DNA from: a virus | Lineage: Duplodnaviria; Heunggongvirae; Uroviricota; Caudoviricetes | IMG/VR virus record: IMGVR_UViG_2698536618_000007 | Length of the DNA stretch: 6,207 nt | Reading direction: 5' to 3' (one strand) | Part shown: piece after piece, positions 2,153 through 3,078 of the stretch | Position numbering within the stretch: the stretch's first letter is position 1 | Layout of the letters: each line of letters begins with the position of its first letter | Program-made: the position numbers and the translations under genes | The notes under the pieces: model-generated | The model's input: only the letters and a program-made list of their open reading frames with translations | What the model was told of the DNA's origin: nothing | The model's database searches: none

Positions 2153-3078
2153 AGCTCCACCCCGTAAATCCAGTCAGTGTTCGTCAGGTCGAGTTTTGGT
2201 TTGCCGGCTGTCACGCCAGCCTGTTGCTTGTTTCGGTTGATTTCGAGCTGGGTCCACTTGTCGCGGAGTTTGGCCGGACTTAGCACGTTACCGGACCAGA
2301 AGTTGTCCTGGCATGCCCAGCGGAACAGCACGCACATGTCGCGGTGGTTACGTCCGTCACGTTCACGCATCAGGCGGATATCGTTAGCCCACCCTGCAAA
2401 ATTCGGTTTTCTGGCTGATGGCGCGATGGTCTTCACCATGTCAAACATCCACTCTGCGGCGGTCAGGTCTTCTGCTGTCCCCCACTTGCTGCCGCTCTGA
2501 ATTGCAGCATCCGGTTTCACCACAGGAAGATCGTTTTCTGGTTGGTCAGAGGATTCGCCAGAATTCTCGGACGAAAAAGGTTTTATATTGTCTTTTGTTA
2601 GTTTGTCTTTTGTGTTTACCTGATTCGGGTAAACGCCTTTACCTGATTTGGGTAAACTTTTTTTACCTGATTCAGGTAAATTTACCTCTTTCAGGTAAAC
2701 TTTATTTTTCTTACCTGATTCGGGTAATGTTGACCATTCACTGACCACATTATTAATGCCGGTATTCCGCCCGCTCTGAATAAAAATCCCACGCTTTACC
2801 AGAACACTTTTTGCAGCAGAACACTTGTGCGGCAATATCCCGGTTAATTCGGAAAGTTGCTCGTTGCTAACCCAATCCAGTTTTTTATTAAAGCCATATG
2901 TTTTGCGCATGACAGCCAGAAAGACCAGAAGCTGGTGCTGTGTTAATCCGGCCAGCATCACAGCTTCCAGCAACTCATTTGCAATGCGCGTATAACCATC
3001 ATCGAGATCTGCCACGCGCGGCTCCTTTTGTGCCGCATCCGGCACTGGAAAATTGAATATCTCAGCAGTGTTTGCCAT
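2149..3078 (-). CDS. O: Replication initiator protein O (lambda O family; N-terminal iteron-binding domain diverged from lambda, C-terminal P-interaction domain lambda-like)
   Basis: The C-terminal ~100 aa (GTAEDLTAAEWMFDMVKTIAPSARKPNFAGWANDIRLMRERDGRNHRDMCVLFRWACQDNFW...) matches lambda O. The N-terminus MANTAEIFNF...RVADLDDGY aligns with the lambda O start MTNTAKILNF...NVADLDDGY. A strong RBS GGGAGG lies 5-6 nt upstream of the ATG at 3078. The ORF track extends to an upstream ATG at 3168, which is a possible alternative start. Confidence 0.88.
   Translation of the reverse strand: MANTAEIFNFPVPDAAQKEPRVADLDDGYTRIANELLEAVMLAGLTQHQLLVFLAVMRKTYGFNKKLDWVSNEQLSELTGILPHKCSAAKSVLVKRGIFIQSGRNTGINNVVSEWSTLPESGKKNKVYLKEVNLPESGKKSLPKSGKGVYPNQVNTKDKLTKDNIKPFSSENSGESSDQPENDLPVVKPDAAIQSGSKWGTAEDLTAAEWMFDMVKTIAPSARKPNFAGWANDIRLMRERDGRNHRDMCVLFRWACQDNFWSGNVLSPAKLRDKWTQLEINRNKQQAGVTAGKPKLDLTNTDWIYGVEL
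2616..2727. repeat. Replication origin iterons: five copies of palindromic TTACC-N7-GGTAA inside the O gene, flanked by an AT-rich tract (about 2575-2615)
   Basis: Copies at 2616-2632, 2639-2655, 2663-2679, 2682-2698 and 2711-2727, spaced about 19-29 bp apart, followed in the O-transcription direction by T/A-rich sequence. This is the lambda ori architecture (iterons plus AT-rich region within the O linker) with a different iteron sequence. Confidence 0.8.

Follow-up and report, generated by a model that had tools for sequence, protein, structure and literature searches.

A 6,207-nucleotide stretch of DNA (hereafter the window) from a DLP12-type lambdoid prophage of Escherichia coli very probably carries, inside gene O, the replication origin of a lambda-type (O/P) replicon. 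The assignment draws on the anatomy and DNA-level conservation of the sequence, on iterons that co-vary with the initiator across the O family, on a mosaic joint within the gene and on the distribution of the module. Judged from these comparisons, the N-terminal domain of O (N-domain) and its iterons appear to form one specificity unit, distinct from those of lambda, phi80, P22 and 933W, and O is therefore predicted to fire only its own origin, via the helicase-loading route of lambda. By analogy with lambda, dimers of the winged-helix N-domain would bind five palindromes of 17-19 bp with the sequence TTACC-N7-GGTAA. The bound array would form an O-some that destabilizes the adjacent A/T-rich ACACAAAAGACA tract, and the lambda-like C-terminal domain (C-domain) of O would then recruit P, in complex with the DnaB helicase of the host, to the melted region.

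Anatomy of the origin within gene O

Gene O matches the Pfam family Phage_rep_O with E=1e-33, residues 21-115 aligning to the full length of the profile (1-95). We place its start at ATG 3078, which is preceded by GGGAGG 5 nt upstream and coincides with the equivalent M(A/T)NTA at which the homologues of lambda, GZ7 and SEN34 begin. RefSeq uses an in-frame ATG further upstream, at 3168, yielding a protein of 339 aa, and the E110019 annotation of the gene comprises 1020 nt. The O stop codon overlaps the start of P, which follows directly downstream (Table 1).

Table 1. Features of the origin and its surroundings. Positions are plus-strand coordinates of the window; iterons are numbered in the reading direction of O, and their sequences are given on the O strand.
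Feature	Position	Strand	Remarks
Gene O, replication initiator	2149..3078	-	309 aa from ATG 3078; Pfam PF04492
O N-terminal domain, aa 1-115	2734..3078	-	predicted winged-helix origin-binding domain and specificity-setting part
O C-terminal domain, aa 197-309	2149..2490	-	lambda-type, presumed P-binding
Iteron array	2616..2727		five exact palindromes
Iteron 1	2711..2727		TTACCCGAATCAGGTAA; peptide LPESGK; most distal from AT-rich tract
Iteron 2	2682..2698		TTACCTGAAAGAGGTAA; peptide VYLKEVN, different frame
Iteron 3	2663..2679		TTACCTGAATCAGGTAA; peptide LPESGK
Iteron 4	2639..2655		TTACCCAAATCAGGTAA; peptide LPKSGK
Iteron 5	2616..2632		TTACCCGAATCAGGTAA; peptide VYPNQVN, same alternative frame as iteron 2; adjoins AT-rich tract
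AT-rich tract	2575..2615		A-rich on O strand; downstream of iterons in O direction; lowest GC
ACACAAAAGACA box	2604..2615		within AT-rich tract
ACAAAAGACA	2589..2598		second box, within AT-rich tract
Gene P, lambda-type DnaB helicase loader	1451..2152	-	Pfam PF06992 Phage_lambda_P, E=2e-60; 97.0% identical to lambda P
ren homologue	1152..1454	-	90% identical to lambda Ren; ends DNA-level lambda-like stretch
emrE, then truncated ybcK			beyond ren in minus-strand gene order
YdaT-domain gene	3704..3165	-	occupies slot of lambda cII
Cro/YdaS-like gene	4003..3773	-	
S24/HTH repressor gene		+	divergent

The iterons occupy codons 118-155 of O, directly after the N-domain. All five TTACC-N7-GGTAA palindromes are exact, against a chance expectation of 0.18 sites with at most one mismatch, and none of 200 shuffled sequences reached five. 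Relaxing the search to two mismatches added no further, degenerate iterons. A TTACC half-site at 2796-2800, inside a repeat copy at 2794-2803, was rejected as an iteron, as it has no partner arm. Four of the five palindromes extend to TTTACC-N7-GGTAAA and are thus as long as a lambda iteron (19 bp). A reading from the sequence only had placed five such iterons within O; their number, arms and coordinates are right, and the O frame that contains them lies on the minus strand. Its description of the array as evenly spaced, however, does not hold, the start-to-start distances in the reading direction of O being 29, 19, 24 and 23 bp.

The ACACAAAAGACA box starts 2 nt past the last iteron, and the tract to which it belongs contains a 15-bp direct repeat. 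Between 2570 and 2609 the GC content is 0.275, which makes this the most AT-rich stretch of gene O; over 2570-2729 it ranges from 0.25 to 0.40, compared with about 0.5-0.65 for the O codons on either side. The AT-rich tract proposed to adjoin the iterons is hence borne out.

We modelled O with AlphaFold2 on the basis of a 22-sequence alignment. The N-domain is confidently folded over residues ~30-118 (pLDDT 73-86), and its helices (22-42, 47-60, 72-79 and 83-95), followed by a beta hairpin (99-108), are in winged-helix order. The C-domain is helical between residues 200 and 288 (pLDDT 80-85). Residues 119-196, whose codons are exactly those of the iterons, the AT tract and an acidic segment, have no predicted structure (pLDDT about 31-36), and because of this long disordered linker the pTM of the whole-protein model is low (0.34). 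No solved O protein structure was found in the PDB by sequence at E<=1, nor did a Foldseek search of the model against the PDB return a significant match (best E=0.04); the DNA-binding proteins among its weak results (E>=0.04) were the winged-helix proteins CRP/FNR, MarR and the N-domain of DnaD. The disordered linker agrees with what has been summarized for lambda O, in which a flexible linker lies between the DNA-binding N terminus and a proposed C-terminal P-binding domain (PMC6022878).

Conservation and co-variation of the iterons

Scanning viral contigs with the single O protein retrieved at least 588 relatives, near-identical copies of which 76 were analysed. We used this set for frequency and judged conservation on a scan of species-representative genomes instead. 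The five-iteron array is identical in 69 of the 76 contigs; nearly all of the few variants are changed solely within the central 7 bp or lack an entire iteron. For the divergent set, one genome per species was scanned with an alignment of five N-domains, which yielded a TTACC-N7-GGTAA class of 13 members (11 loci, Klebsiella phage GZ7 and the window) from Escherichia, Klebsiella, Enterobacter, Kluyvera, Pseudocitrobacter, Xenorhabdus, Pantoea and Providencia. Their N-domains are 70-85% identical to that of the window.

In all 13 members, distances of 19/24/23 bp separate the four iterons closest to the AT tract, and the last of them lies 2 nt from the box. The window shares these distances together with the exact arms and the sequence LPHKCSAAKS in the predicted recognition helix. 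A fifth iteron is located 29 bp upstream in the Enterobacteriaceae members and is absent in Xenorhabdus, Pantoea and Providencia. Overall, the iteron number varies from four to nine, the nine of Kluyvera having arisen by repeated duplication of a 48-bp unit. Among the 63 iterons of the class, positions 1, 3-5, 9 and 13-16 are invariant (A3, C4, C5, G13, G14, T15 and A16 are kept), and the positions flanking the iterons carry only 0-0.6 bits. Mean pairwise identity across the 13 members amounts to 0.996 for the arms, 0.865 for the iteron centres and 0.597 for the spacers between iterons; at third codon positions it is 1.00 in the arms and 0.477 in the N-domain. The AT box reaches 0.856, or 0.81 at its third codon positions. 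With arm third positions fully conserved, those of the N-domain at 48%, and both the spacing and the distance to the box fixed, strong selection acts on the DNA. The sequence-only reading had staked its case on palindromes and spacing being conserved in homologous O genes, and both are conserved in seven other genera.

The iterons also encode protein, and selection might in principle act on a tandem LPESGKK peptide in the O linker, with the palindromes as a by-product. Three of the five repeats indeed encode LP(E/K)SGK, and homologues likewise display repeated peptides. The other two iterons, however, are read in another frame and specify VY(L/P)(K/N)(E/Q)VN with the DNA unchanged, so that the same DNA gives different peptides. 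Moreover, the third-position conservation of the arms far exceeds that of the N-domain, disorder is predicted for the encoded segment, and natural variants without two or three of the repeats stay in frame. We consider selection for the peptide very improbable. The proposal that the iterons impose LPESGKK-like peptides on the linker accordingly applies to iterons 1, 3 and 4 and fails for iterons 2 and 5. Because the iterons and the AT tract code for a disordered linker, constraints at the DNA level can occupy two reading frames.

A further alternative is that the palindromes are not DNA sites but hairpins in the O mRNA, acting for instance on message stability or by pausing translation. A stem of 5-6 bp closed by a 7-nt loop could form at each site. 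Across the 63 iterons, though, the bases of the arms are nearly unchanging and there are no compensatory double changes at all, which is a signature of base-specific protein recognition rather than of pairing alone. Other O lineages switch both arms together, and these switches track the initiator sequence; the equivalent sites of lambda are proven O-binding sites (PMC7466680). Searching the whole window against Rfam matched no family. Hairpins in the message are thus an extremely improbable explanation. Repressor operator sites were also considered as a reading of the palindromes and rejected.

The preferred reading, DNA sites for O, predicts that iterons and initiator change in concert. At the same place, other O lineages carry other palindromes (GTCAC-N7-GTGAC, GTAGC-N7-GCTAC and TTCCC-N7-GGGAA), and palindromes are tied to their own N-domains also in SEN34 (TTAGC-N7-GCTAA), phi80 (TTCCC-N6-GGGAA) and P22 (TTACC-N5-GGTAA). 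The predicted recognition helix (O residues ~83-95) has its own sequence for each iteron word: LPHKCSAAKS pairs with TTACC-N7, A(P/A)TKCSTAKNE with TTACC-N5, HHTHCSTAKN with TTAGC-N7, PRQKVNKAKNE with GTCAC-N7-GTGAC and PVKRCNEAKLE with the word of lambda. Such co-variation is expected if the O N-domain reads the arms. A Ferrimonas/Orbus group combines TTACC/GGTAA half-sites with an N6 spacer.

The two halves of O are also separable. In Klebsiella phage GZ7 and in prophages of Enterobacter, Kluyvera and Xenorhabdus, the same N-domain, iterons (in class and spacing) and AT box are fused to unrelated C-domains, and the loader encoded downstream is an IstB/DnaC-like AAA+ protein instead of P. GZ7 and these prophages have been sequenced and are unstudied. 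Pantoea possesses a diverged lambda-type C-domain followed by a diverged P. The junction to the foreign C-domains lies directly after TKD(K/N)xTK(D/E), the peptide encoded by the AT tract. This tract, the presumed unwinding element, is thus at the same time the recombination joint at which the half for origin recognition meets that for loader recruitment.

Prophage context and distribution

The minus strand of the window represents the early-right operon of a lambdoid prophage (Table 1). As a whole, the window matches E110019 at 99.9%, identifying a DLP12-type prophage with emrE, ybcK, ybcL and ybcM. Its left end consists of an IS3 end fused to the truncated ybcK, and ~3 kb present in E110019 are missing. 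Despite intact O, P and iterons, the IS-associated deletion beside the replication module may mean that this copy never fires. The anatomy of an origin could accordingly survive in a silent relic that is no longer a replicon; DLP12-type prophages are often cryptic, and E. coli variants with just two or three iterons exist. Yet O and P are of full length, the window retains cro and the repressor gene, ren is intact, the five-iteron array is the majority form among the viral contigs, and it is 100% identical to that of phage PhiR34_1. We regard a silent relic as unlikely, albeit worth bearing in mind, and it would concern the state of this copy, not the identity of the element.

The origin itself is widespread. 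Of 5426 complete E. coli genomes, 2296 contain the segment comprising N-domain and iterons (2560-3078) at a coverage of at least 80%, and its location is nearly always chromosomal. In addition, 15 phage records, among them PhiR phages, 4A7, Lambda_4C10, 1W, 3W, Turner, IdasGreatGrand and Perceval, contain gene O in full, with 97-99% identity overall and 98-100% in the iteron region; several of the PhiR phages list the laboratory strains K-12 or C as host. Experiments have shown that Perceval, a prophage of strain LF82, is active and forms plaques (PMC9928086). Since this phage carries the allele, the module works in living phages. The iteron strings are absent from about 8 million full texts, and a literature search found no experimental study of this allele.

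On the basis of these results, we tentatively suggest, at somewhat less than even odds, that the TTACC-N7-GGTAA origin and its O N-domain constitute an experimentally uncharacterized specificity group orthogonal to lambda, which, being present in 42% of complete E. coli genomes, would rank among the commonest lambda-type replicons of the species. If so, the N7 class, P22 (N5) and the Ferrimonas/Orbus group (N6) would differ solely in half-site spacing and offer a natural series for how a dimeric initiator re-tunes its spacing to create new, mutually compatible replicons. In practical terms, iterons and origin specificity groups could be annotated in thousands of prophages of E. coli and other enterobacteria whose gene is now labelled 'replication protein', and it could be predicted which co-resident lambdoid prophages cross-activate or titrate one another's origins. 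The module might also serve as a lambda-dv-type replicon, which should be compatible with lambda-based vectors. Finally, the rule of the family, a palindrome class that co-varies with the recognition helix while spacing and ACACAAAAGACA box stay fixed, is possibly useful as an origin finder.

Comparison with known origins

For comparison, the iterons of lambda and 933W were taken from the GenBank annotation and the loci were aligned by the SEW motif that ends the N-domain. The window, lambda, 933W, P22 gene 18, SEN34 and GZ7 share one layout, in which SEW is followed by the iterons, the ACACAAAAGACA box and a further AT-rich stretch. In lambda, 933W, P22 and SEN34, as here, the box starts 2 nt past the last iteron. 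It is also present in most other O-family loci, and an acidic SSENSGESSD segment after the AT tract is common to the window, lambda and 933W. The architecture of the lambda origin that had been recognized in the sequence is thus the one annotated for lambda and 933W. Nevertheless, the iteron word differs, as had likewise been noted: the arms are TTACC-N7-GGTAA here and TCCCT-N7-AGGGA in lambda and 933W, and the central 7 bp are devoid of the A4 tract of the lambda group. The lambda specificity group (lambda, 434, 21 and 933W) is defined by the consensus ATCCCTCAAAACGAGGGAT and a lambda-like N-domain, and the window has neither.

Spacing is closely similar to that of lambda, with 20/24/23 bp there and 19/24/23 bp for the four iterons nearest the AT tract here. 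The full series are 20/19/20/24/23 bp in 933W and 29/19/24/23 bp in the window. The window has five iterons, lambda four, and 933W six, as does the P27 origin. In footprints of 933W and P27, efficient binding of O was confined to the four iterons closest to the AT tract, yet the extra ones are still required for plasmid replication (PMC7466680). By this pattern, the distal fifth iteron of the window, 29 bp away from its neighbour, may be weakly bound and could have an auxiliary role like the extra iterons of 933W and P27.

The break in similarity to lambda falls at the origin. The N-domain (residues 1-115) is 48.7% identical to that of lambda O and the C-domain 98.2% (with respect to lambda O 187-299); the values for the iteron-encoded stretch and for that from the AT box to the acidic segment are 23% and 80%, respectively. 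In agreement, DNA identity to lambda is ~50-60% between 3079 and about 2630. It takes intermediate values of 70-77% over the last iteron plus AT tract (2629-2570) and then stays at about 95% until about 1190. Megablast matches to 933W, SfI and others begin only at query position 541-554, that is, at the end of the last iteron. A diverged N-domain joined to a lambda-like C-domain had been anticipated, as had a replicon with its own initiator-origin specificity and lambda-type helicase loading; the divergence of N-domain and iterons and the likeness of C-domain and P to their lambda counterparts support both.

Alignment with further replicon types, as proposed at the outset for lambda, phi80 and 21, gave N-domain identities of about 49% for lambda, 21 and H-19B, about 48% for 933W and P27, 47% for HK97, 40% for phi80 and 65% for P22. 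The palindromes of lambda and phi80 differ from those of the window. The TTACC-N7-GGTAA class occurs in none of these classical phages (lambda, 21, H-19B, 933W, P27, HK97, phi80 and P22). It may, however, correspond to the type of phage 82, to which DLP12-type prophages are similar in the rus and Q regions. The origin of phage 82 was reportedly published in 1979-81 (by Moore, Denniston and Blattner in 1981), and the phage is said to have five repeats together with a P compatible with that of lambda.

Two phages have the same architecture with other words. Gene 15 of phi80 contains annotated gp15 sites with an N6 spacer. SEN34 O, whose N-domain is 61% identical to that of the window, has a lambda-type C-domain and is accompanied by P; it differs in the TTAGC/GCTAA arms of its palindrome. 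P22 has the closest N-domain among the classical phages (65% over residues 19-115, 59% over the full 115-residue alignment), and its gene 18 bears the same TTACC/GGTAA half-sites at the same position, together with the same ACACAAAAGACA box. Its arms, though, are 5 bp apart, its C-terminal domain is unrelated, and gene 12 follows instead of P. Repeats within P22 gene 18 have been mentioned, and P22 gp12 has been called a DnaB-type helicase (PMC8022706). The window does not belong to this N5 group, since the spacer is 7 bp in 63 of 63 iterons of its class.

Read in this way, O has the classical layout in which a type-specific N-terminal half is joined to a common, putatively P-interacting C-terminal half. 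The origin is a distinct but very common variant of the thoroughly understood lambda design, with another key and lock and little new mechanism.

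Half-site spacing and iteron number among O homologues

The half-sites TTACC and GGTAA of the iterons, the presumed O-binding sites, were compared for spacer length across related O loci (L002, which is P22, L098, L101-L103, L110, L112, L113 and L117). The spacer measures 5 bp in the P22 group, 6 bp in Ferrimonas and Orbus and 7 bp in the class to which the window belongs. The half-sites themselves are common to all three groups. This suggests that initiator specificity is able to diverge through a change in half-site spacing alone. Within the 7-bp class the number of iterons varies as well. 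Kluyvera sichuanensis (L088, 1852-2060) carries nine, which arose via repeated duplication of a 48-bp unit of two iterons, and some E. coli O variants (among proteins P0006-P0013) are down to three or two. Such variation would fit a history of unequal recombination among the iterons.

Two O homologues, from Enterobacter sichuanensis (L089) and Klebsiella grimontii (L092), have no recognisable iteron array after the SEW residues that end the N-terminal domain. These proteins comprise 367-373 aa, and a coding segment (…GYIYVFAESE…GFTT…) is inserted after SEW in place of the array; it resembles a GIY-YIG-type nuclease motif.

The one-genome-per-species contig scan also returned O genes identical to that of lambda, together with lambda iterons, at L133-L142, L144-L146 and L156. 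Their source labels are Bradyrhizobium, Pseudoxanthomonas, Shewanella, Pseudomonas, Neobacillus, Oceanobacillus, Paenibacillus, Ruminococcus, Leeuwenhoekiella and Chromatium, and the contigs are mostly short or of low coverage. These loci almost certainly represent contamination of the respective assemblies with lambda DNA.

The left end and the cro/cII region

At the left end of the window, the truncated ybcK retains 136 aa of the resolvase N-terminal domain. Compared with the same prophage region in E. coli strain E110019, about 3 kb is absent, namely the remainder of ybcK together with ybcL and ybcM; the prophage seems to have undergone a deletion beside the IS element.

Pfam domain annotation of the region 3165-4003 places a YdaS-like helix-turn-helix protein (PF15943) in the cro slot and a 179-aa YdaT-domain protein (PF06254) in the cII slot, and identifies no lambda-type cII there. 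The same occupants hold the cro and cII positions in the Rac prophage. The adjacent palindrome (see table) is a candidate operator.

Features at the O start, beside cro and at the left end of the window
Feature	Position	Strand	Basis
End of IS3-family transposase gene fused to truncated ybcK	1-497		Sequence match; window left end
Sigma-70-like promoter, TTGAAT-17-CATAAT with upstream TG	within 3053-3148	+	Sequence; overlaps the O start codon
Stable hairpin with weak U tract, downstream of the antisense promoter	~3115-3148	+	Fold z=-2.3
25-bp near-perfect palindrome ATGGTTGTTTTTAGTCAACAACCAT	4042-4066	both	Flagged by terminator scan; between cro and repressor gene (RefSeq annotation)

The O start and a candidate antisense RNA

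RefSeq starts O at the upstream ATG 3168, giving a protein of 339 aa; this ATG overlaps the YdaT-like gene's stop codon. ATG 3078 has GGGAGG 5 nt upstream, and the O homologues of lambda, GZ7 and SEN34 begin at the equivalent ATG. A miscalled start site probably accounts for the extra 30 residues in the RefSeq version.

The sigma-70-like promoter overlaps the O start codon and is directed antisense to O. Together with the hairpin it may specify an oop-like antisense RNA; an Rfam search of the window gave no match for this candidate. At the equivalent position lambda has pO/oop, and phi80 an annotated M3 RNA.
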